This document shows, in pieces, positions 37,179 through 51,636 of a stretch of 64,000 nucleotides of DNA (within the stretch, counting starts at the first letter, position 1; the number at the start of each line of letters is the position of its first letter). The notes under the pieces are model-generated. The model was not told where the DNA came from. It saw only the letters and a list, made by a program, of their open reading frames with translations, and did not search any database. The position numbers and the translations under genes were made by a program. The stretch covers positions 1,152,001 through 1,216,000 of the forward strand of contig CAXXSR010000001.1 in assembly GCA_963662615.2 (NCBI GenBank). The letters are read 5' to 3'. This DNA comes from Dehalococcoidia bacterium (GTDB lineage Bacteria; Chloroflexota; Dehalococcoidia; Bin125).

Positions 37179-37904
37179 ATGGAAAACGCAAGCCGCATGC
37201 CGGGGCCGCAGATCTGGATTCAGGGCGACCCCGAAGAGCTGCGCGATCTGATGCCGCTCGGCATCGCCGGGATCATCACGAACAACCTCATCCTCCGCGA
37301 CATGGCGCAGCGGTACAGCGACCTGCGCTCGCTTCTGGACCGCTACCTGGAGCTGGATCCGAACCACCTGGTCGTCGAAGTGGATGGCGACACCGACGAA
37401 GACTTCATGTACGCCGCCGAGGCCGCCGTCGCGCTGTCCGACAAGGTCATCGTCAAGGTCGTCACCAAGCCGGTGGGGATTCGCGCTCTGGCTACGCTCC
37501 ACGCCCGCGGCGTCCGCTGCATGGCCACGACGGTCTTCTCGCTCAACCAGGCCATCTTGATGGCGGCCGCGGGCGCGACCTGGGTCGCCCCCTTCGTGGG
37601 GCCCATCCACGCCGCCGGCGGCGACGCCTTCTCCTTCGTGCGCCAGGTCGCCGAGGCGTTCCGCGATCGCCCCGGCGCGCCCGGGATCATGGGCGGCATC
37701 ATCCGCGATGCCTCGCACGCGCACATGGCCTACGCCGCCGGCGCCGACGCCATCATCACCTTCCCCCCCATCTACTGGGAGATGCTGCAGCACCCCGGCA
37801 CGGACGAGTGGAACCGGACGTTCCTCGGCGCCTGGGCCGAGATGGAGTCACGCGGCCAGCTGAACGGGTTCCTGCGCACGCCGGCCGCCGCACACGTCAC
37901 CTGA
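37179..37904 (+). CDS. Divergent transaldolase/fructose-6-phosphate aldolase family protein
   Basis: GIITN, VIVKV Schiff-base Lys, T.VFS.NQA..AA.AGA..VAPFVG, GAD.IT.PP, HP.T. Confidence 0.82.
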   Translation: MENASRMPGPQIWIQGDPEELRDLMPLGIAGIITNNLILRDMAQRYSDLRSLLDRYLELDPNHLVVEVDGDTDEDFMYAAEAAVALSDKVIVKVVTKPVGIRALATLHARGVRCMATTVFSLNQAILMAAAGATWVAPFVGPIHAAGGDAFSFVRQVAEAFRDRPGAPGIMGGIIRDASHAHMAYAAGADAIITFPPIYWEMLQHPGTDEWNRTFLGAWAEMESRGQLNGFLRTPAAAHVT

Positions 37905-37934
37905 CGGCGGCCCGGTCCCGGTGGCGCGGCGGTG

Positions 37935-38084
37935 GTGACCGCGTTGAGGGTGCCGCCGCGCGGGGTGATGGAAGTGCTGGGGCACGCGCAGATCAGCACG
38001 ACCATGGAGGTGTACACGCACGTCCCGTCGGAAGTGAAGCGAGAGGCTGTGGACCGCCTGGCAGCAGCGCTCTGGGCGCGATGA
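37935..38084 (+). pseudogene. C-terminal 50-codon remnant of a tyrosine integrase
   Basis: VPPRGVMEVLGHAQISTTMEVYTHV..; closely similar to 45999-46148. Confidence 0.9.
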
Positions 38085-39014: not shown

Positions 39015-39571
39015 ATGGCCGTGACCCAGTCGCCTCCACAAGTGTTCATCTCGCACAACGCGAAAGACAAGCCGCTCGCGCGTGAGATCGCTGTCTATCT
39101 GGTCGCAGCCGACTGCGGCGTCTGGTTCGATGAATGGGAGATACGAGCTGGCGATTCGATAGTTGGGAAGGTGGATAACGCCCTTGCCGCCTGTACTGAC
39201 GTCCTGATTGTTTGGTCGGAAGACGCCGCAGGATCGGAATGGGTTACGGCAGAGCTGGAGGCGGCGCTAGCGCGAGCCATGGACAACGAGCACCCTCGAA
39301 TCATCCTGATCAAGACAGACGAGACTGCGCCTCCGGAACTCTTACGGGCGCGTCGTTACATTGACTGGTCCGACAATCCTGAGGCGGCCTTCAACGAAGT
39401 CGTCCGCAGCATCACGGGGGAGAGCCCTGGATCGTCGCTCCGAAGGGCTGTGGTTCAGAAGTACCGCGATCTAATCTACGACGACAGCCCGCCATTTGGT
39501 CTGGCGGCCTGTCCCACATGCGGTAGCGAACGGCTGCGTGGCTCGACCATGTATGACAAACGGGACGATGT
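39015..39571 (+). pseudogene. TIR-domain protein with CxxC motif, interrupted by IS3 insertion
   Basis: VFISHN..DK, VWFDEWEI..GDSI, SEWV..EL (catalytic Glu), CPTCGS; IS end TGACCTGCCCCC begins at 39572. Confidence 0.88.
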
Positions 39572-40391
39572 TGACCTGCCCCCGATCGTTGTACCAGTCG
39601 TTAAGTTAGTCCGATCGCCGGGACGAGCGTCAGGGGACGTTCCCGGGGTTGCTGCGTTTCCGGGGCGGGGGGGCGGTAGCCGAGGGCACGGTGGGGGCGG
39701 ATCTGGTTGTACTCCCGCCGCCAGCCCTCGATGAGGATCTGGGCTTCCAGCAGGGTGTCGAAGCGCTCGCGATTGAGGCACTCGTCGCGCAGCTTGCCGT
39801 GGAACGATTCCACATAGCCGTTCTCCCAAGGACTGCCCGGTGCGATGAAGAGGGTCGTGACCCCGACCCGGTGCAGCCAGTCCCGCACCGCGGTGGCGGT
39901 GAACTCCGGGCCGTTGTCGGACCGCAGCAACGTCGGCGGCCCGCGCTCGACGAACAGCTGGGCCAACCGCGCCAGGACGTCGTCGCTGCGCAGTCGGCGG
40001 GCGACGTCGAGACGCAGGCACTCGCGGGTGGTCCTCATCCACGATGGCGAGGATCCGCACCGGGCGCCCATCGGCGGTGCGGTCGAAGACGAAGTCGTAG
40101 GACCAGACGTGGGACGGCCGCTCGGCCCGCCGCCGCACCAGCGAGCCGGCCGCGAGCCAGAGGCGGCCCCGTTGGGGGTGCTTCCCGGGGACCCGCAAGC
40201 CTTCCTGACGCCAGCGCCGCTCGACCCGCTTGTGGTTCACCCGCCAGCCCTCCTGGCGCAGCAGGGCCGTGATGCGACGGGAGCCGTAGCGGCCGAAGCG
40301 GGTGGCCAGCGCGACGATGCGCGCGATCAGCGCCGGCGCATCCGGGGACGGCCGGGGCACGTAGCGCTGTGTCGCCCGCGCCTGGCCGGTG
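39572..40391 (-). mobile_element. Truncated IS3-family element (right end plus frameshifted orfB)
   Basis: Terminal TGACCTGCCCCCGATCGTTGTACCA; WSYDF, SDNGPEF, PWENG..ESF; +1 shift near 40031; 5' part cut by second IS. Confidence 0.9.
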
Positions 40392-40420
40392 TGACCTGCC
40401 CCCGATTGTTGTACCAGGGC

Positions 40421-41263
40421 TTAAGTTAGTGCCAGAACCATCCGGTCTGCCAAAGGGGTGGGGTGGGGAGGTCCGACCTCCAGGGTCTCTGGGGCGGGGG
40501 GGCGGTAGCCGAGGGCGCTGTGAGGCCGGACTTGGTTGTACTCCCGGCGCCAGCGATCGACCAGGATCTGCGCTTCCGTGAGCGTGGTGAAGATCTCGGG
40601 GTTGAGGCACTCGTCGCGCAGCTTGCCGTTGAAGGATTCCACATAGCCGTTCTCCCAGGGGCTGCCGGGCTCGATGAAGAGTGTCGTCACGCCGAGGCGA
40701 CGCAGCCAGGAACGCACCGCCGTCGCCGTGAACTCGGGGCCGTTGTCGGAGCGGACGTAGGTGGGCGGGCCCCGCTGCACGAAGAGCGCCGTCAGCCGGG
40801 CGAGGACGTCGTCGGACCGCAGGCGCCGGGCCACGTCAATGCTGAGGCACTCCCGCGTGTACTCGTCGACGATGGTCAGCAGGCGCAGGGGCCGGCCGTC
40901 GTGGGTCCGCTCGCTGACGAAGTCGTAGGACCAGACGTGGTTCGGGCGCTCCGCCCGGCGCCGCGTGCAGGATCCATCGGCCGCCCAAAGCCGCCGCCGG
41001 CGCGGGGCTTTCCGGGGCACCCGCAGCCCTTCCTGCCGCCAGAGCCGCTCCACCCGCTTGTGGTTCACCCGCCAGCCCTCGGCCCGCAGCAGCGCCGTGA
41101 TGCGCCGGGAGCCGTAGCGCCCGAAGCGGCGGGCAAGGGCGATGATCCGGGCGATCAGAGCCGGCTCGTCCGCGGGCACCTGCACGGGGTGCCGCTGCGT
41201 GCTGCGCGGCTGGGCGAGGGCCCGGCAGGCCCGACGCTCCGAGACGGCCAGCGCGGTTCGCAC
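40421..41263 (-). CDS. IS3 transposase OrfB (DDE integrase core)
   Basis: RYGSRRI, VNHKRV, WSYDF, DEYTRE, SDNGPEF, PWENGYVESFNGKLRDE. Confidence 0.9.
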   Translation of the reverse strand: MRTALAVSERRACRALAQPRSTQRHPVQVPADEPALIARIIALARRFGRYGSRRITALLRAEGWRVNHKRVERLWRQEGLRVPRKAPRRRRLWAADGSCTRRRAERPNHVWSYDFVSERTHDGRPLRLLTIVDEYTRECLSIDVARRLRSDDVLARLTALFVQRGPPTYVRSDNGPEFTATAVRSWLRRLGVTTLFIEPGSPWENGYVESFNGKLRDECLNPEIFTTLTEAQILVDRWRREYNQVRPHSALGYRPPAPETLEVGPPHPTPLADRMVLALT

Positions 41264-41287
41264 GTGCGCAACCGCCTGCCGCCGGGC

Positions 41288-41566
41288 TCAGAAGTTTCCC
41301 GACGCCACCTCTTTGAGGATGGCGTGGTCCAGCGCCTGATCGGCCACCAGCCGCTTCAGCCGCGCGTTCTCCTGCTCCAGCTCCTTGAACCGCTTCGCCT
41401 GATCCAGCCGCAGGCCGCCGTACTCCCGCCGCCAGCGGTAGTAGGTCTGCTCGGCGACGCCGAGCCGTCGTGCCACTTTGGCCACACTCTCGCCCTGCGC
41501 CAGGGCCACCTCCGCCTCCCGCAGTTTCCCGATGATCTGCTCTGCCGTGTACCGCTTCCGCGCCAT
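41288..41566 (-). CDS. IS3 transposase OrfA (HTH)
   Basis: KRYT.EQII.KLREAE, QTYYRWR..YGG, LE.EN.RLK.LVA; ends at G-GGA-AAC slippery site. Confidence 0.92.
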   Translation of the reverse strand: MARKRYTAEQIIGKLREAEVALAQGESVAKVARRLGVAEQTYYRWRREYGGLRLDQAKRFKELEQENARLKRLVADQALDHAILKEVASGNF

Positions 41567-41701
41567 GCCGACTCCCTCCTCCCAGCCCGGATCCTCGCAT
41601 AGGATCTGGACCGGTTTTGGGGGGGCAGGTCACTTCCTGGCTCGATTCTCGACGACCGCAGACCAGTGGCGCGTCATCAGCGAGTTCCCCAATGGAGAAT
41701 C

Positions 41702-43096
41702 TTAATCGTCACGCGAGCCGCTCGTGGCTGCCGCTAGTGTTCCCGACTCAATCCGATGTGAAAGCTCAGTCGCATTGACCCGCTGCACCGGACTGGCGAC
41801 GCCGTCAGTCGTGAAGTGCACGCCCTCAGCCTCCAAAACCGATTGGGGATCGTCCTTGCGATTGGGATCCGCCCAGGCAAATTGCGATGCGATTCGACCC
41901 GCAGCCGTGAGCACTCGATAAGCAGCGACGCAGTCAGTGCAAGTTGCGACGTGTCGGCCAACGGGTACTGGAGCGCTTCCGACGACGGCGGCAAGGTCAC
42001 TGTAGGTAGTCCAGTCACCCTGTTTGAGTGCCTTGAGGGCTTCGTGGAGTATTGACCAATCACGCGCACCGCGAGCGCCGAACCCGGCGAGGCGAGATAG
42101 TGTTTGACCATCATCGGTGATCCACAGCCGAGGACCACGGACGACCGGTGGCGGTTCGTCCGTCGCGCGCTCGATCATTTCCCGTGCGAGGCCGGTCGGA
42201 GTCCATCCCTGCTCGTCGATCTCCCAAACGAGAGGACCAGAAGAATCGTTCTGCCAGGTCACCCGTCCACGCTTCTCGTCTTGCAATAGCCAATGCTCAA
42301 CGCCGTCGCGAACGGACGTAGGCAGAGACGTGCAATCAAGATGTAGCGGCGCACCATCGTCGAGGACGCCATCAGCAATAAGACGATCGACCGCCGTCGT
42401 CTCCCGACGCCTGTGGCTGCGCGCATCAGCAGCGCGGATGCTGGCCTGGCGCGGCGAAACTGTGAAGTCCTCGATGTCCTGCGGAGGCCAAAGCTGTGAA
42501 ACGGTCAGTACGATATCGTGTTCGGCCCGGTATGCGCCAAACTGCACGAGCGAAATATCCAGCCCCATCTCGGTCAGCCAGACCGCCGTGGCTGTCACTT
42601 GTGGCGGGAACCGGGCCGCCATCAGGACGATTCGAGGTTGTCGGAGGAGATCGGGATCGAATTCGCCGTCGATGTGATTCTCGAGAGCGGAGCGCGCTTC
42701 GTCCAGCGAGACTGGCGCACTCTTCTCATTCGAAAGGTACTTGGCGTGGGTTTCAGACAGGGTCTCTTCCGTGAAGCGGGACGCGAACGCCGCGTACTTT
42801 ATCGCCTGCATCTCCACTGTCGAGGGTGCGGTCCCTCGCTTTAGTTCGGCGACCACAAGTCGTCCGTCGGAGTCGATTCCCAGAAGGTCGAGTCGGTCGA
42901 GTTCCGATCCTTCCCGGCTCCTCCACTCGCTGAACTCGAAGGTCACAATCCGGATATTCGGACCAAGTACCTGCGGGTGTTTCCGCACCCACTCCTGCAA
43001 GTCTTCTCGCTCGCGAAGACCGGCGTCCACGAGTTCGATCGGCTCACCAAGGATCGCTTTTCCTGGATGGACCGTGAAAAGGAATTGGCCGTCCAT
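41702..43096 (-). CDS. NucS/EndoMS-like PD-(D/E)xK nuclease fused to putative RAMA and alkyltransferase-like (MGMT/ATL) domains
   Basis: E..LQ.W, RLDLLGID..G.LVVAELKR, QA.KYA; middle V..LI..G.L..G..L...TPTGLA...G...W; C-terminal GDWTTYSDLA..VG...VG...AYRVL...G.I...L.AEGV.F. Confidence 0.8.
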   Translation of the reverse strand: MDGQFLFTVHPGKAILGEPIELVDAGLREREDLQEWVRKHPQVLGPNIRIVTFEFSEWRSREGSELDRLDLLGIDSDGRLVVAELKRGTAPSTVEMQAIKYAAFASRFTEETLSETHAKYLSNEKSAPVSLDEARSALENHIDGEFDPDLLRQPRIVLMAARFPPQVTATAVWLTEMGLDISLVQFGAYRAEHDIVLTVSQLWPPQDIEDFTVSPRQASIRAADARSHRRRETTAVDRLIADGVLDDGAPLHLDCTSLPTSVRDGVEHWLLQDEKRGRVTWQNDSSGPLVWEIDEQGWTPTGLAREMIERATDEPPPVVRGPRLWITDDGQTLSRLAGFGARGARDWSILHEALKALKQGDWTTYSDLAAVVGSAPVPVGRHVATCTDCVAAYRVLTAAGRIASQFAWADPNRKDDPQSVLEAEGVHFTTDGVASPVQRVNATELSHRIESGTLAAATSGSRDD

Positions 43097-43223: not shown

Positions 43224-43412
43224 TCAGGCTGTTAGCGCCCGAAGCACAACCGGAAGGACCAGCGCCACAATCAGCAGCAGGGTCACAACACTGAGGACGA
43301 TCGACAACACGCGGCGCCGCGGCGGCTCCCAGTCGGAATAGCCGGCTTCTTCGGTCAGGTCGGGATCGAGATCGCCCTCACGTGAGAATTCCCATTGGTC
43401 CTCGTCGCCCAT
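43224..43412 (-). CDS. Small acidic protein with C-terminal membrane helix
   Basis: 62 aa; TAAACT -10 box 6 nt before ATG; hydrophobic tail after RRR. Confidence 0.65.
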   Translation of the reverse strand: MGDEDQWEFSREGDLDPDLTEEAGYSDWEPPRRRVLSIVLSVVTLLLIVALVLPVVLRALTA

Positions 43413-43558: not shown

Positions 43559-43942
43559 CTATGTCTGCTTGACGTAGAGGGGTAGACTTCCGTGCCGCGC
43601 TACATGGCGGATGTGTAGGTCCTCTTCCGCCGTCGCAGGACGCCTCGTCGGAGCCCACCTCACCAGGAGTTCAGCTGGAGTCTCGCCCGCAATGATTCGG
43701 CGTCGGCCAGAGTGCCTTGCCTTTCCTCGCACTAGACCCTGCTTGACTCGAGACCTCAGGTTGGACGTCTTGCCGATGTAAATCGGAACACGGGTCCCCT
43801 TCCGGCGAAGCTGATACACACCTGGGACTCTATTGGGCACCGAAGTCCCGCCCGACCGCGCGTCTTGGTGCAGCTCCGACCATCCGTGCCATGGGCTCCA
43901 ATCCAACGTGATGCGTGGGATGTTGATGATCTGCTGGCTCAT
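43559..43942 (-). CDS. Small GIY-YIG nuclease family protein
   Basis: PGVYQL...IYIGKTSNLRSRV, AEEDL, LP. Confidence 0.8.
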   Translation of the reverse strand: MSQQIINIPRITLDWSPWHGWSELHQDARSGGTSVPNRVPGVYQLRRKGTRVPIYIGKTSNLRSRVKQGLVRGKARHSGRRRIIAGETPAELLVRWAPTRRPATAEEDLHIRHVARHGSLPLYVKQT

Positions 43943-44267
43943 TTTCGCCCTCCTAGGGCCACACTCCAGCTTAGGTCGCTGCCGGCAGGTAGAGCGGCGA
44001 CCAATACCCAAGCGCTTGCTCAAGAGCCCAGGTCGCCACGGGCGCACCTTGCCTGTGACCCCTAGAACCAATAGTCCTGGACTGATCCTCGCCCCCTCCA
44101 TCAAGAAAAGTCGCCCTCACCTCGCCGACGACGGTCTTCACGAGCGGCTAGGCACCCCCACGTCGCGAGCACTATGCTTCCGCGCCCGCGCGGGGCCGAT
44201 TTGGTACGCGGTAATTCCCACCCTCCAGCGGGCCCGTACGGTCGATTCCAGAAAGCGAGGTGCAGCC

Positions 44268-44957
44268 ATGAACCGCACTACTTCTGAGGCGCCTGGACCG
44301 TCAACGGTTGTAAACGGTCAATACTGGGCTTGGCGAACTGCAGGCTGTCCCAAGACAGTCAAGGGTCCCCTTCAGCTATCCCCTAATCCATTCGATCACC
44401 ACCTCCATACCGCTGGCACCGCTGGCTTCCATGAGCTCTTCGAGCAAAGACTTCGCGCTGGCGACTGGGACGGCGTACTCAGGATGTACTCGTCGGAAGA
44501 GCGGATTGGCGGCCTGCTCCGATTGTGGCCGCTGATTCCAACCGACGCGAGCGGCGAAGTGTTACTCAACAATTGGTCTCTCTGCGACCTGCCGGTCAGA
44601 TATGGGATGGCGCGCGTGTTGGCGCTCTTTCGTGAGGTGGCGTATATCGGGCACGGCCCAAAGCAGGTAGAACCAGTCCGCCTTTATCGTGGATTCTCCG
44701 CAAGCCAGTACCGACGCGGCCTTTCTTGGACGCCCCAGCTGGAAACAGCCCGCCTCTTCGCCGGTGGAGGGCGGTACGACGATGGGTATGGGTTCGTTGG
44801 CACCGTCGTAGCTCCTCCCGAAGCTGTCCTGGCATTCATCAAAAATCGAAACGAATCCGAGTACATTCTCGACCCCGCGCGGTATCCGCGGGTCCGCGAG
44901 GTAGAGGTGGTGTATCCGCCAGACGACCCTCGACGCGACAAGGGTGGGGACGCCTGA
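44268..44957 (+). CDS. Hypothetical protein with ADP-ribosyltransferase-like C-terminal domain
   Basis: LYRG...SWT....A..FA...NESEYI (R-S-E pattern); RBS GAGGTG. Confidence 0.6.
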   Translation: MNRTTSEAPGPSTVVNGQYWAWRTAGCPKTVKGPLQLSPNPFDHHLHTAGTAGFHELFEQRLRAGDWDGVLRMYSSEERIGGLLRLWPLIPTDASGEVLLNNWSLCDLPVRYGMARVLALFREVAYIGHGPKQVEPVRLYRGFSASQYRRGLSWTPQLETARLFAGGGRYDDGYGFVGTVVAPPEAVLAFIKNRNESEYILDPARYPRVREVEVVYPPDDPRRDKGGDA

Positions 44958-45017: not shown

Positions 45018-46148
45018 ATGACCAAACGCGGCAGCGGCGAAGGCAGCATCTACAGGCGCGCCACCGATGGCCGCTGGACGGCGAGCGTGAGCGTCGACGG
45101 GAAGCGGAAGACCTTCTACGGCCAGACGCAGCAGGAAGCGCGCAAGAAGCTCCGCGACCATCAGACCGCGCTGGAGGCAGGCCGGCCAGCGCGATCACCG
45201 AAGCTCAAGACCGGCGACTACCTCCGGTCATGGCTCGGGGAGCACGTCAAGCCCCGCGTGCGACCGACAACATTCAAGGCATATGAGATCCGGGTTCGGT
45301 GTCATCTCATTCCGGCGCTGGGCCACATTCCCCTCATCAAGCTCACCCCGTTTGATGTCGAGCGCATGATCGGCGAACAGCTCCTCGCGGGCATGGCTCC
45401 CCGCAGCGTGCAACACAACCGCGCCATCCTTCGCAAAGCACTCAACGACGCGAGGCGCTGGGGACTGGTGGACCGCAACGCCGCCGCCCTGGCAGAGCCG
45501 CCAGCAGTGGTGGAACCGGAGCGCACCGCTCTCACGGTGGATCAGGCACGGGCGCTGCTCGCAGCGATTCGTGGGGACCGACTCGAAGCGGCTTACATTT
45601 TGGCCTTGGCGCTTGGGTTACGGCAGTCAGAGGTGCTGGGCTTGCGCTGGAGCGACATTGACTTCGATCCGGCCGCCCTGCAAGTCGAACGGACGCTGCA
45701 GCGGGCCAACCGGCAGTATCAGTTCTTCCCGCCCAAGTCGCGGACCAGCCGACGGGCGATCCCGCTGGCAGAGCCGGTCATCGCCGCGCTCCGGGAACAC
45801 CGGATTCGGCAGCTGGAGGAGCGCCTGCGGGCAGGTGGGGCGTGGCAGGGCCAGCAGTGGGGCGATCTCGTCTTCTGCGATGAACTCGGGCGCCCGCTGG
45901 CTGGCACCCATGTCACGCGGCGTCTGCGCAAGCTGCTCGTGGCAGCCGATCTTCCTGCCATGCGCTACCACGATCTCCGTCACGGCGTGGCGTCCGTAAT
46001 GACCGCCTTGGGGGTGCCGCCGCGCGTGGTAATGGAAGTGCTGGGGCACGCGCAGATCAGCACGACGATGGAGGTGTACACGCACATCCCGTCGGCGGTG
46101 AAACGCGAGGCCGTTGAACAACTGGCGGCCGCCCTTTGGGCTGACTGA
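45018..46148 (+). CDS. Phage/ICE-type tyrosine integrase
   Basis: KRG.GEGSIY arm-binding N-terminus, GLRQSEVLGLRW.D, PKS, YHDLRH, LGHAQISTTMEVYTH. Confidence 0.95.
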   Translation: MTKRGSGEGSIYRRATDGRWTASVSVDGKRKTFYGQTQQEARKKLRDHQTALEAGRPARSPKLKTGDYLRSWLGEHVKPRVRPTTFKAYEIRVRCHLIPALGHIPLIKLTPFDVERMIGEQLLAGMAPRSVQHNRAILRKALNDARRWGLVDRNAAALAEPPAVVEPERTALTVDQARALLAAIRGDRLEAAYILALALGLRQSEVLGLRWSDIDFDPAALQVERTLQRANRQYQFFPPKSRTSRRAIPLAEPVIAALREHRIRQLEERLRAGGAWQGQQWGDLVFCDELGRPLAGTHVTRRLRKLLVAADLPAMRYHDLRHGVASVMTALGVPPRVVMEVLGHAQISTTMEVYTHIPSAVKREAVEQLAAALWAD

Positions 46149-47801: not shown

Positions 47802-47876
47802 CCCCCCGTAGCTCAGGGGATAGAGCAGTGGTTTCCTAAACCATGTGCGCAGGTTCGATTCCTGCCGGGGGGACCA
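47802..47876 (+). tRNA. tRNA-Arg(CCT)
   Basis: GTGGT-TTCCTAA-ACCAT anticodon arm, GGTTCGATTCC, CCA end. Confidence 0.93.
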
Positions 47877-47904: not shown

Positions 47905-49113
47905 CTAGGGCCGCTCGAAGAGCGCGGCGATGCCCTGGCCGCCGCCGATGCACATGGTCTCGAGGCCGTAGCGCACCCGTCGGCGCTCCATCTCGTGGAG
48001 GAGCGTGGCGAGGATGCGGGCCCCGGTGGCAGCGATGGGATGCCCGAGCGAGATCCCGGAGCCATTGACGTTCAGCTTTTCCTCCAACCCATCCTCAGAG
48101 GCGCGGCGCCACTCGGAGAGGACGGCGAGCACCTGCGATGCGAACGCCTCATTGAGTTCAATCAGATCGACGTGATCCAGGGACACCCCCGTCTTGGCCG
48201 AGAGCTTCTCCATTGCCGGCACCGGGCCGATCCCCATATAGGCGGGATGCACGCCGGTCACGGCCCAGCCGCGCAGGTACGCCATGGGCTCCAAGTTCAG
48301 CTCGGGGAGCTTGTCGGCGGCGACGACCAGGCAGACCGCTGCCGCGTCGTTCTGGGCGCTGGCGTTGCCGGCGGTGACTGTTCCCTCGGGCATGACGGGC
48401 TTGAGTTTCGCCAGTGCCTCCGGGGACGTGTCCTTGCGCGGCCCCTCGTCATGCCGGACCTCGACAGGGGCGCCCTTCCGCTGGGGCGCCAACACCGGCA
48501 CGATCTCCGCATTGAAGTTGCCCGCCTCCGCCGCCGCAACGGCCCGCTGATGGCTGCGCACGGCATATTCATCCTGCGCCTGTCGCGAGATCTGATATTT
48601 CCGCGCCAGATTTTCCGCGGTCTCAATCATGCCGTTGATGGGACCGAACCGTTCCTCGGGCGAAGCCGTCGCCCGCGCCCGCTGCAGGCGATCGTGCAAC
48701 GTGACGGAGCCCATCCGGCTGCCCCAGCGCGCGGCGGTGGTGTAGAACTCCGCGCCGCTCATGGATTCCACCCCGCCCGCGATCACGACGTCCGCATTTC
48801 CCGTCTGCACGAGCATGGCCGCGTTCAAGACCGCCTGCAGGCCCGATCCGCAGCGCCTGTCGAGCTGGTAGCCGGGAACCTCAATGGGCAGCCCCGCTTT
48901 GAGCGCCGCCAGGCGTCCCACCGCCGGCTCCTCGCCGCTGGGATAGCCCTACCCGAGGATGACGTCATCGATGCGCCCAGGGTCGACGCCGGTGCGAGCC
49001 ACCAGCGCCCCGATTACCGTGGCGGCGAGTTCCGCCGCCGGCACGTCTCGCAAAGCCCCGCCGAAGCGCCCCACGGCCGTGCGCAGCGGGCTGACGATGG
49101 CGACCTCTTGCAT
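47905..49113 (-). pseudogene. Acetyl-CoA C-acetyltransferase (thiolase) with in-frame TAG at 48951-48949
   Basis: RTAVGRFGG, CGSG, NEAFA, GHP, CIGGGQG; both ORF pieces share a frame, separated by one stop. Confidence 0.88.
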
Positions 49114-49119
49114 TGCGAA

Positions 49120-49165
49120 CCCCTCCTGCTCCGCTTTCACAGCCCCTCCTGCTCCGCTTTCACAG
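49120..49165. repeat. 23 bp tandem duplication covering the thiolase RBS
   Basis: CCCCTCCTGCTCCGCTTTCACAG x2. Confidence 0.9.
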
Positions 49166-51265: not shown

Positions 51266-51341
51266 AGGAGTGTAGCTCAGTTGGAAGAGCAGCGGTCTCC
51301 AAAACCGCAGGTCGGGGGTTCGAGTCCCTCCACTCCTGCCA
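51266..51341 (+). tRNA. tRNA-Trp(CCA)
   Basis: GCGGT-CTCCAAA-ACCGC anticodon arm. Confidence 0.96.
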
Positions 51342-51360
51342 ACATGGCGGCTAAGATCGT

Positions 51361-51448
51361 GCCGAGGTGGTGGAACTGGTAGACACGCAGCGTTGAGGGC
51401 GCTGTGCTCATTCTGGGCGTAGGAGTTCGAGTCTCCTCCTCGGCACCA
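51361..51448 (+). tRNA. tRNA-Leu(GAG)
   Basis: CAGCG-TTGAGGG-CGCTG, long variable arm. Confidence 0.95.
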
Positions 51449-51467
51449 TTGGGAGAACGAAGTCCGA

Positions 51468-51542
51468 GCGGAAGTGGCGCAGTGGTAGCGCGTCTCCTTG
51501 CCAAGGAGAAGGTCGCGGGTTCGACCCCCGTCTTCCGCTCCA
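51468..51542 (+). tRNA. tRNA-Gly(GCC)
   Basis: TCTCC-TTGCCAA-GGAGA, TCCA end. Confidence 0.96.
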
Positions 51543-51561
51543 ACTTCATTGCCCGCCTCAT

Positions 51562-51636
<75 letters not shown>

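Follow-up and report, generated by a model that had tools for sequence, protein, structure and literature searches.

A candidate modification-dependent nuclease of the PDC-S11/Madara family with a RAMA-fold and an alkyltransferase-like domain in a Dehalococcoidia bacterium

A gene of 464 codons was analysed in a 64,000-nucleotide stretch of the genome of a Dehalococcoidia bacterium (assembly GCA_963662615.2, contig CAXXSR010000001.1, positions 1,152,001 to 1,216,000 of the forward strand; hereafter the window, from whose first letter all coordinates are counted). The gene is likely to encode a defence-type nuclease of the PDC-S11/Madara family. Its preferred reading, to which slightly better than even chances are given, is a single-protein type IV-like (modification-dependent) restriction nuclease carried on an acquired islet, in which an alkyltransferase-like (ATL) domain would flip and read a modified base. 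The odds that specificity is read by the ATL-like domain are put at about even. The gene and the parts of its product are as follows.

41702..43096, minus strand: target gene, 464 amino acids (aa), NucS-like nuclease, linker helix, RAMA-fold domain and ATL-like domain
42461..43096, minus strand: PD-(D/E)xK nuclease domain, residues 1-212, of PDC-S11/Madara type and resembling the C-terminal domain of NucS
42839..42889, minus strand: catalytic core D70...E84-L-K86; E54, Q97 and Y101 lie outside this span
42371..42454, minus strand: long linker helix, residues 215-242, assigned by DSSP on the AlphaFold2 model
42077..42370, minus strand: RAMA-fold (SAND-like) domain, residues 243-340, a putative binder of double-stranded DNA (dsDNA)
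41777..42061, minus strand: ATL-like domain (MGMT C-terminal fold), residues 346-440, assigned from PF01035, the Atl1 profile match and Foldseek
41930..41953, minus strand: H382-x3-C386-x2-C389 (together with H351), a conserved His/Cys set without counterpart in Atl1
41915..41926, minus strand: A391-A392-Y393-R394 replacing PCHR, with A392 at the position of the acceptor cysteine (Atl1 W56)

The nuclease domain was assigned by profile and structure matches. Five PDC-S11 profiles of PADLOC matched the target with E values of 2.1e-49 to 5.5e-26, all confined to residues 17-234; the best aligned residues 21-234 with profile positions 18-226 of 347, and the C-terminal third of the profiles was without a match in the target. 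The Pfam NucS_C match was weak (E 0.15). The NCBIfam NucS equivalog NF003270 matched residues 30-102 with an E value of 8e-6; its 25.1 bits fall far short of the cutoff of 216, and only profile positions 130-195 of 250, the catalytic part, were aligned. Foldseek placed EndoMS/NucS first (5gke_A, E 1.2e-4; 2vld), followed by Shedu SduA (8ps4_A, E 8.9e-3) and HamA. Among 133 three-domain homologues the catalytic positions were almost invariant: E84 and K86 were kept in all 133, D70, Q97 and Y101 in 132 each and E54 in 131. From its sequence, the N-terminal domain is a NucS-type catalytic domain that lacks the mismatch-binding N-domain of NucS, and the protein is not NucS.

The PDC-S11 family is already known. 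PADLOC has listed it as a candidate since 2023, the year of PADLOC-DB v2.0.0, and its validation came in 2026, when the PDC-S11 gene of Escherichia coli ECOR34 was renamed "Madara" in a September preprint (bioRxiv 10.64898/2026.09.05.749240). According to that preprint, Madara restricts Tevenvirinae and wild-type T4, whose DNA carries glucosyl-hydroxymethylcytosine, and does not restrict T4(C); the D63A substitution abolishes defence, and the authors call the C-terminal domain distantly EVE-like (bioRxiv 10.64898/2026.09.05.749240). A second nuclease, MdgA, bears a DUF4268 domain and was described in a 2025 preprint, according to which T4-GT7 DNA suffers far less degradation by it in vitro than T4 DNA and E77A kills the enzyme; the authors propose DUF4268 as a substrate-recognition motif (bioRxiv 10.1101/2025.02.28.640651). 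DUF4268 is part of three PDC-S11 profiles, and it is through this domain that MdgA is provisionally tied to the family. The D-x13-E spacing of the target equals the spacing from Madara D63 to MdgA E77, the two mutated residues; this is a numerical coincidence across two different proteins. A 332-aa E. coli PDC-S11-like protein, which may or may not be Madara itself, shared with the target only the nuclease domain (34% identity over 194 residues) and had no match to the hidden Markov models (HMMs) of the middle or ATL-like domain.

The open reading frame (ORF) begins with an ATG that agrees with the starts of its homologues. The original prediction had been made from the letters and translated ORFs of the window, and the motifs that it quoted were all located in the translation (RLDLLG at residue 68, ELKR at 84, QAIKY at 97, WTTYSD at 362 and AAYRVL at 391). 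Its three domain ranges agree with the boundaries in an AlphaFold2 model built from 61 homologues (predicted local distance difference test score (pLDDT) 93.3, predicted template modelling score 0.76), and its assignments of a NucS-like PD-(D/E)xK domain at the N-terminus and an MGMT/ATL fold at the C-terminus were borne out by the profile and fold matches. The gene had also been called the best candidate for a new system, which does not hold for the nuclease module, since this belongs to PDC-S11 and has been published as Madara; the system is thus not wholly new. The model consists of an alpha/beta nuclease (1-212), the helix 215-242, a small alpha/beta domain (243-340) and an MGMT-like region (346-440), which is a helical/winged domain, followed by a terminal helix.

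Relatives of the whole protein were numerous. At E <= 1e-3 the target matched 437 of 8000 scored candidates, the top non-self match having 59% identity (E 3e-170), and a scan of 1.84 billion cluster representatives returned 3154 relatives at this threshold and 208 at E <= 1e-30. Database labels on these relatives read 'MGMT family protein' or 'Atl1'. The closest named relatives were metagenome-assembled genomes of Chloroflexota (Tepidiformaceae and Dehalococcoidia; loci L001-L010, L012 and L020) at 51-58% identity, followed by Actinomycetota at ~47%. A phmmer search with the single target protein against Protein Data Bank (PDB) sequences gave no match at E <= 1. Mean pairwise identity was 59% in the nuclease, 42% in the RAMA-like and 47.5% in the ATL-like domain, and the linker helix was the least conserved segment (40%).

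The C-terminal domain matched Pfam PF01035, the MGMT DNA-binding domain, at an E value of 4.3e-5 and reached 27.4 bits in a six-frame scan of its own genome; 40 of the 61 aligned homologues were matched by the same model. A profile of 26 homologues searched against PDB sequences retrieved Schizosaccharomyces pombe Atl1 (3gva, E 7.4e-5) and Vibrio ATL (2kif, E 9e-4), and Foldseek returned 2kif (TMt 0.57) and 3gva (TMt 0.60) together with many Ogt/MGMT structures. In the HMMER alignment to Atl1, Y365 corresponded to Y25, R394 to R58 and A392 to W56, the last being the position of the acceptor cysteine in true alkyltransferases. The acceptor column of the 133 homologues held Ala in 103, Gly in 19, Val in four, Arg in three and Thr, Pro and Asn in one each, with no Cys among these 132. 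With no acceptor cysteine the domain cannot accept an alkyl group, as had been predicted from the replacement of PCHR by AAYR. Two canonical PF01035 genes lie elsewhere in the genome (116.6 and 114.1 bits) and are thus available for ordinary alkyl repair.

The residues expected around a base pocket were well conserved (Y365 in 125, R394 in 130 and F406 in 122 of the 133). In Atl1, Y25 and the arginine finger R39 serve nucleotide flipping, and the finger of ATL and MGMT proteins fills the gap left by the flipped base. The finger column, V377 in the target, held Gln in 77, Arg in 31, Ile in eight, Met in seven, Val in four and Leu in three homologues. As the canonical arginine finger is a valine, the sequence indicates that the ATL-like domain is no plain copy of an O6-alkylguanine binder. 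Four further positions, at which Atl1 has Y/A/L/H, were strongly kept (H351 in 124, H382 in 125, C386 in 123 and C389 in 124 of the 133), and may form a zinc site.

The middle domain was modelled alone (residues 243-343) with a pLDDT of 94.8; W281 and W291 are invariant and W269, R276 and W325 nearly so. In a structural comparison with 48,161 PDB representatives, the RAMA domain of mouse MPND (7ydt_A) ranked first (Z 7.3, root mean square deviation 2.8 Å over 76 residues), the C-terminal domain of CcrM (6pbd_B 282-356) second (Z 6.3) and SAND domains third and fourth (Z 5.3 and 4.3), the first unrelated chain having a Z of 4.1; these values are middling by the tool's own scale. Foldseek also placed MPND first (E 0.11), and the three nearest clusters in the ESM Atlas were RAMA (0.83-0.84), which is taken as a lead only. 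Pfam RAMA PF18755 did not match the target protein at E <= 1 and matched one of 61 homologues (E 0.033). A whole-genome scan with PF18755 likewise left the target unmatched and gave one weak match elsewhere (G000:C1:938296-938430, 27 bits, in a 62-aa open frame). When 61 middle domains were aligned by hhalign with 26 RAMA C-termini of the same phylum, the alignment was co-linear over 73 columns (P 0.002, probability 13.7%). The model thus gives a fold that is RAMA/SAND-like, and the RAMA-like pattern originally noticed is upheld at the level of fold; the Pfam HMM is silent, and sequence-level membership of PF18755 lacks support. RAMA-profile matches above cutoff were present in 29 of 151 same-phylum genomes (L081-L109), almost all of them forming the C-terminus of open frames of ~360-400 aa; the N-terminal portions of these frames had no BLAST similarity to the target.

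The RAMA domain had been counted as a second modified-base reader. MPND and CcrM are the only two solved RAMA domains; in the relevant paper, the MPND domain binds the dsDNA backbone without sequence preference, N6-methyladenine (6mA) leaves its binding unchanged, and the CcrM domain is said by the authors to contact only the DNA backbone (PMC9963953). This suggests that the label of modified-adenine reader, a prediction, has not been borne out to date, and the idea of two readers in one protein was overstated. The nuclease and RAMA-like core was present in 88 of 150 representatives of the family. Backbone-only binding and the place of the domain in the conserved core together make it look like a generic DNA clamp, with only the third domain being swapped.

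The third slot was examined by scanning the HMMs of the three domains over the 150 listed representatives, which gave the following architectures.

46 of 150: nuclease and RAMA-like domain
33 of 150: nuclease and an unrelated C-terminus of at least 80 aa
23 of 150: nuclease, RAMA-like and ATL-like domain
23 of 150: nuclease only, many of these being fragments
19 of 150: nuclease, RAMA-like domain and another C-terminal domain of at least 80 aa
4 of 150: RAMA-like and ATL-like domain without nuclease
2 of 150: nuclease and ATL-like domain

Ten of the non-ATL C-termini were scanned; one was DUF4268 (P0131, E 6e-17) and one DUF5655 (P0141, at its cutoff). The position of the ATL-like domain is thus occupied in relatives by other domains, and the family is modular exactly there.

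The effector was found to be exchanged as well. Two of the four nuclease-less proteins were complete (P0231, 408 aa; P0239, 384 aa). The N-terminus of P0231 is a TIR domain, by its precomputed Pfam annotation (PF13676) and a match to the SARM1 TIR domain (E 5e-4). Among the 120 clusters listed by a search with P0231, 24 (P0231 and P0271-P0293, all metagenomic, with a length of ~408 aa) carried PF13676 with PF01035 at 92-100% coverage. The same TIR domain was fused to DUF4268 in two of the 120 (P0323 and P0339) and to PF08751 in P0308; together with the TIR, RAMA-like and ATL-like proteins, these fusions point to a network of sensor and effector shuffling. Nuclease-type members were up to 84% identical to P0231 across the shared module. 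The N-terminus of P0239 is GIY-YIG-like by its motif and by ESM Atlas similarity (0.92, with 24 of 30 matches in GIY-YIG clusters), a lead only; it had no PDB sequence match. The sensor positions (W, H and C) were invariant across the nuclease, TIR and GIY-YIG-like effector types. On sequence evidence the module of RAMA-like and ATL-like domain, fused to TIR and probably also to GIY-YIG, would behave as a portable sensor. One sensor is combined with different effectors and one effector with different sensors; this suggests a detection module of conflict systems, for which it is the strongest argument, and a sensor common to a nuclease and an NADase-type (NAD-degrading) effector fits immunity and not repair.

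The preferred reading of a type IV-like nuclease with an ATL reader is the most economical one because two modification-dependent members have been published, DUF4268 occupies the third slot in relatives and the ATL fold is one made for flipping a purine out of the duplex and lodging it in a pocket. In the proposed mechanism, the RAMA-fold domain would hold duplex DNA by its backbone. The ATL-like domain would dock by its helix-turn-helix and rotate candidate bases out of the duplex into the pocket, with Tyr365 kept, residue 377 serving as the plug, and A392/Y393/R394 and the conserved F406-x-W loop forming the lining. Having no acceptor cysteine, the domain would bind only and not repair. The pocket would be filled by a non-canonical base foreign to the host DNA, most likely a modified purine, whereupon the NucS-like PD-(D/E)xK domain (E54, D70, E84 and K86) would cut the DNA, probably as a dimer; a homodimer prediction (two copies, own alignment) scored 0.36, below the mark of 0.42, and carries no weight in either direction. 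We infer the reader role of the ATL-like domain, the identity of the ligand, the coupling to cleavage, the zinc site and the formation of a dimer. Relatives whose reader domains are of other kinds (Madara and MdgA) have been published as restricting phage in dependence on modification and as cleaving DNA in vitro, and the target may act by analogy. The single-gene, type IV-like reading of the original prediction would accordingly be retained by analogy, with a nuclease fused to a putative base-reading domain. No DNA methyltransferase was found among 20 neighbouring ORFs scanned, which is expected for a type IV enzyme.

Several points weigh against this reading. The PDC-S11 profiles reach residues 21-234 only, so that the other two domains are not covered, and since the E. 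coli PDC-S11-like protein shares only the nuclease, the published phenotypes transfer to the cutting module only. The PF01035 score of the target is 23.7 bits, just below the curated cutoff of 27. The finger arginine is lost (Val in the target), which makes base flipping itself conjectural. The ligand of the ATL-like domain is a guess, and its role as reader would be extrapolated from relatives that have no ATL-like domain. Most homologous loci, especially those of Chloroflexota, lie among metabolic genes, the Chloroflexota copies being mostly single-gene islets, and support from defence islands is modest (five of 26 loci, listed below).

The main rival, itself unlikely, is a defence nuclease that acts independently of modification, its RAMA-like and ATL-like domains being general DNA-binding or autoinhibitory modules. 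The trigger would then be of another kind than a modified base, for instance a free DNA end, a replication intermediate, a DNA lesion or a protein of the phage, in the manner of Shedu-type systems, and the outcome may be abortive. Such a nuclease would fit the resemblance of the catalytic domain to Shedu SduA (8ps4_A, E 8.9e-3) and HamA, the binding of studied RAMA domains without sequence or 6mA preference (PMC9963953), the unconserved arginine finger and the fusion of the module to TIR, which shows that its output can be abortive. It leaves the conservation of the pocket (Y365 125/133, R394 130/133, F406 122/133) hard to explain, since a mere anchor would not be expected to keep it. It is also opposed by DUF4268, a proposed recognition motif (bioRxiv 10.1101/2025.02.28.640651), which holds the ATL slot in relatives, and by the modification dependence of both characterised relatives, Madara and MdgA.

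The setting of the gene in the window was consistent with acquisition. The target has a G+C content at third codon positions (GC3) of 0.64, against 0.78-0.93 in flanking housekeeping genes, and the stretch from 42 to 48 kb has a G+C content of 0.60-0.63 against 0.67-0.70. The following features lie around the gene.

39015..39734, plus strand: TIR-domain ORF (Pfam TIR_2, E 1.1e-26; PADLOC PDC-S66, E 7e-16)
40392..41634, minus strand: complete IS3-family insertion sequence (IS), with orfA at 41288-41566 and orfB at 40421-41263
43224..43412, minus strand: 62-aa ORF, ending 127 nt upstream of the target start
43559..44104, minus strand, upstream of the target: weak GIY-YIG-like ORF (Pfam GIY-YIG, E 9e-4, 19.9 bits against a cutoff of 22.6)
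45018..46148, plus strand: tyrosine integrase (Pfam Phage_integrase, E 4.6e-25)

A direct repeat of 163 nt, 83% identical, was found at 37915-38077 and 45979-46141, the right copy being the 3' end of the integrase gene; an 8-kb cargo that contains the target is enclosed between this gene and the left copy. The left copy is an orphan remnant beside a transaldolase-like gene and may be the scar of an earlier or tandem element. Two IS3-family copies, 77-81% identical, lie head to tail (39572-41634), of which 39572-40391 is partial and holds only an orfB fragment. The family was assigned from an HTH_21 match on the sister copy and from the terminal repeat at 40392-40430, which has an inverted copy ending at 41634. 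The last ~50 codons of the TIR ORF are read from the partial, diverged IS3 copy, and the ORF was probably truncated by the insertion. The TIR region of P0231 showed no similarity to this ORF by BLASTP (E 1.7). The GIY-YIG-like ORF had no PADLOC match; the N-terminus of P0239 matched it weakly by BLAST (E 0.039). In the product of the 62-aa ORF the N-terminal half is acidic and the C-terminal half hydrophobic and transmembrane-like; co-transcription of this ORF with the target is possible. Just upstream of the integrase, within the ORF at 43833-44957, ~44268-44957 on the plus strand had no Pfam or PADLOC match; an Arg...Ser-x-Thr...Glu-x-Glu pattern seen by eye is reminiscent of ADP-ribosyltransferases, by motif resemblance only. 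Further cargo ORFs were without family match.

Integration into the tRNA-Arg gene (47802-47876) was considered and rejected: the island is situated 5' of the tRNA, and a search for direct repeats returned none derived from that gene. A comparison with empty sites found the left-flank gene (37179-37904) in none of 25 relatives at E <= 1e-40; these relatives are distant, with a thiolase 75% identical. The thiolase ORF of the window (47905-48921, minus strand) starts at position 64 of the Pfam profile, with a 63-aa ORF (48949-49140, minus strand) just upstream, which may reflect a frameshift or assembly error. Elsewhere in the window, 10616-10794 holds a tRNA-Ile/Ala pair typical of rRNA spacers, and 21468-21835 and 51266-51636 hold clusters of four tRNA genes each.

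It is very improbable that the gene is a decaying passenger of a degraded mobile element, non-functional in its host. The mosaic island with its integrase remnant, two IS3 copies and a TIR ORF running into an IS would suit such a fate, as would the several orthologues that were short or split in crude gene calls (L004, L012, L023 and L028). The target ORF, however, is intact and of full length with every conserved residue present, and the complete IS3 element ends 67 nt beyond its stop codon, leaving the gene untouched. The calls at L004, L012, L023 and L028 (220+214, 292, 358 and 258 aa, respectively) and the absence of any called ORF at L005 could reflect pseudogenes or long-read indel errors.

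Full-length orthologues were present in two of 36 same-family genomes (55% identity), the other matches being distant nuclease-only paralogues. Neighbourhoods were compared at 26 of the 80 loci returned, namely those with a match of at least ~428 residues on a contig with flanks; L019, on a 1.7-kb contig, and shorter matches were left out. Three ORFs per side were called with a crude GC3-based gene caller, giving 152 in total, of which 108 had no counterpart at any other locus; neighbours were conserved among close relatives only. The Pfam tally covered 149 ORFs, the three longest being scanned apart, and was headed by metabolic families, namely SDR (7), ABC permease (7), CoA-transferase (5) and acyl-CoA dehydrogenase (5); it also included Fic (3), N6_Mtase (2), RES (2) and ResIII (2); no repair family was among the top 25 families of these 149 ORFs, so that the homologues were not found to sit in core repair loci, a placement that would have spoken against the original prediction. 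The PADLOC tally of neighbours gave SoFic (3), type I, II and IIG methylase models (2 each) and ZacA (2). GC3 of the target homologue was lower than the locus median at 19, equal at one and higher at four of the 24 loci with one called ORF. Individual scans of 15 large neighbours gave strong defence neighbours at five of the 26 loci, all in Actinomycetota.

L022: type III restriction endonuclease, methyltransferase and DrmD-like helicase
L021: type I restriction endonuclease
L013: type IIG
L016: DruE-like helicase of 2203 aa and UvrD-like protein
L017: DUF262/HEC-06-like protein

The nuclease family was found on 353 plasmid records of PLSDB (Klebsiella 219, Escherichia 41) and on two phage records. 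The ATL form was on none of the plasmid records, 0 of the 353 covering at least 80% of the query.

These data bear on a further alternative, a DNA-repair enzyme in which the ATL-like domain finds endogenous lesions such as O6-alkylguanine and the nuclease incises alongside, as a self-contained substitute for ATL-directed excision repair. Both end domains derive from repair families and many homologous loci lie among housekeeping genes, as such an enzyme would have it. It is nevertheless improbable. The distribution is patchy (2/36 same-family genomes) and the composition foreign; an integrase, IS3 copies and a TIR gene are close by; and the neighbourhood is not conserved (108/152 ORFs being singletons), with no repair family in the top 25. 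TIR proteins carry this sensor as well, and the cutting module is that of a validated defence family. The genome is already equipped with two canonical MGMT-type genes, and the target lacks the mismatch-binding N-domain of NucS. The target is an accessory gene; the low-GC3 mosaic in which it sits also contains the integrase, the IS3 copies and the TIR gene.

The known modification-dependent readers are SRA, EVE/PUA-like, YTH, ASCH, winged-helix and sulfur-binding domains, possibly with DUF4268, and are mostly known to read cytosine or adenine marks and phosphorothioates. It is a tentative, rather doubtful proposition that innate immunity has taken over the ATL fold as a DNA sensor of a new class, which would flip hypermodified phage purines and read them without covalent attachment, and which with the RAMA-fold clamp would form a portable module for NucS-like nuclease, TIR and GIY-YIG effectors. 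Its ligands may, for example, be 7-substituted deazaguanines, O6- or N2-substituted guanine or 2-aminoadenine. If true, a repair-derived base-flipping reader of guanine-type lesions would extend the repertoire to modified purines, which many phages use, and would supply a binder of such bases that is at hand and open to engineering; with the parallel TIR fusion, the sensor ligand could be tested directly by a simple NADase read-out. Should the ATL-like domain serve as no more than an anchor on DNA, the gene would simply add a member to a nuclease family that has now been validated. A search of open-access PMC and bioRxiv, supplements lying outside its scope, gave no paper tying an alkyltransferase-like domain to restriction or phage defence; homologues with further domains might be listed in the supplements to the preprints on Madara and MdgA. 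In one paper, RAMA-Mrr and GIY-YIG-RAMA fusions are named as untested candidates and the terms MGMT, alkyltransferase and Atl1 are absent (PMC11037411).

Among known systems, Madara is similar in consisting of a single gene whose product starts with a NucS-like PD-(D/E)xK nuclease, joined by a linker to a C-terminal region that reads DNA; this region is called distantly EVE-like by the Madara authors, where the target has a RAMA fold and an ATL-like domain, and the host phylum differs. MdgA is likewise a single-gene modification-dependent nuclease by its published activity, and the relative P0131 has DUF4268 at the ATL slot of the target, whereas the target itself has no DUF4268. NucS/EndoMS (2vld, 5gke) shares the fold and motif of its C-terminal catalytic domain; the target lacks the N-terminal mismatch-binding and dimerisation domain and is accessory, not core. 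The RAMA domains of CcrM (6pbd) and MPND (7ydt) are the best structural matches of the middle domain and contact the DNA backbone in the solved complexes (PMC9963953), while the middle domain of the target evades the Pfam RAMA HMM and carries an inserted helix.

Known ATLs are small stand-alone proteins that hand lesions to excision repair. Atl1 (3gva) and Vibrio parahaemolyticus Atl (2kif) have the MGMT C-terminal fold in common with the target; like it, they lack an acceptor cysteine and keep the arginine of (P)xHR and a tyrosine at the position of Atl1 Y25. The ATL-like domain of the target differs in forming the last third of a 464-aa nuclease fusion, in its finger (Val in the target, mostly Gln in the family) and in its extra H/H/C/C set. 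MGMT, Ogt and Ada have the active-site cysteine in PCHR where the target has AAYR at 391-394. Type IV reader-nucleases, such as the SRA-HNH enzyme TagI and DpnI-like winged-helix fusions, follow the same logic of a base-reading domain joined to a nuclease, with reader and nuclease folds different from those of the target. The TIR proteins with RAMA-like and ATL-like domains (P0231 and 23 further clusters) carry the same two-domain module with all of its conserved His, Cys and Trp positions, and differ in that a TIR effector replaces the nuclease.

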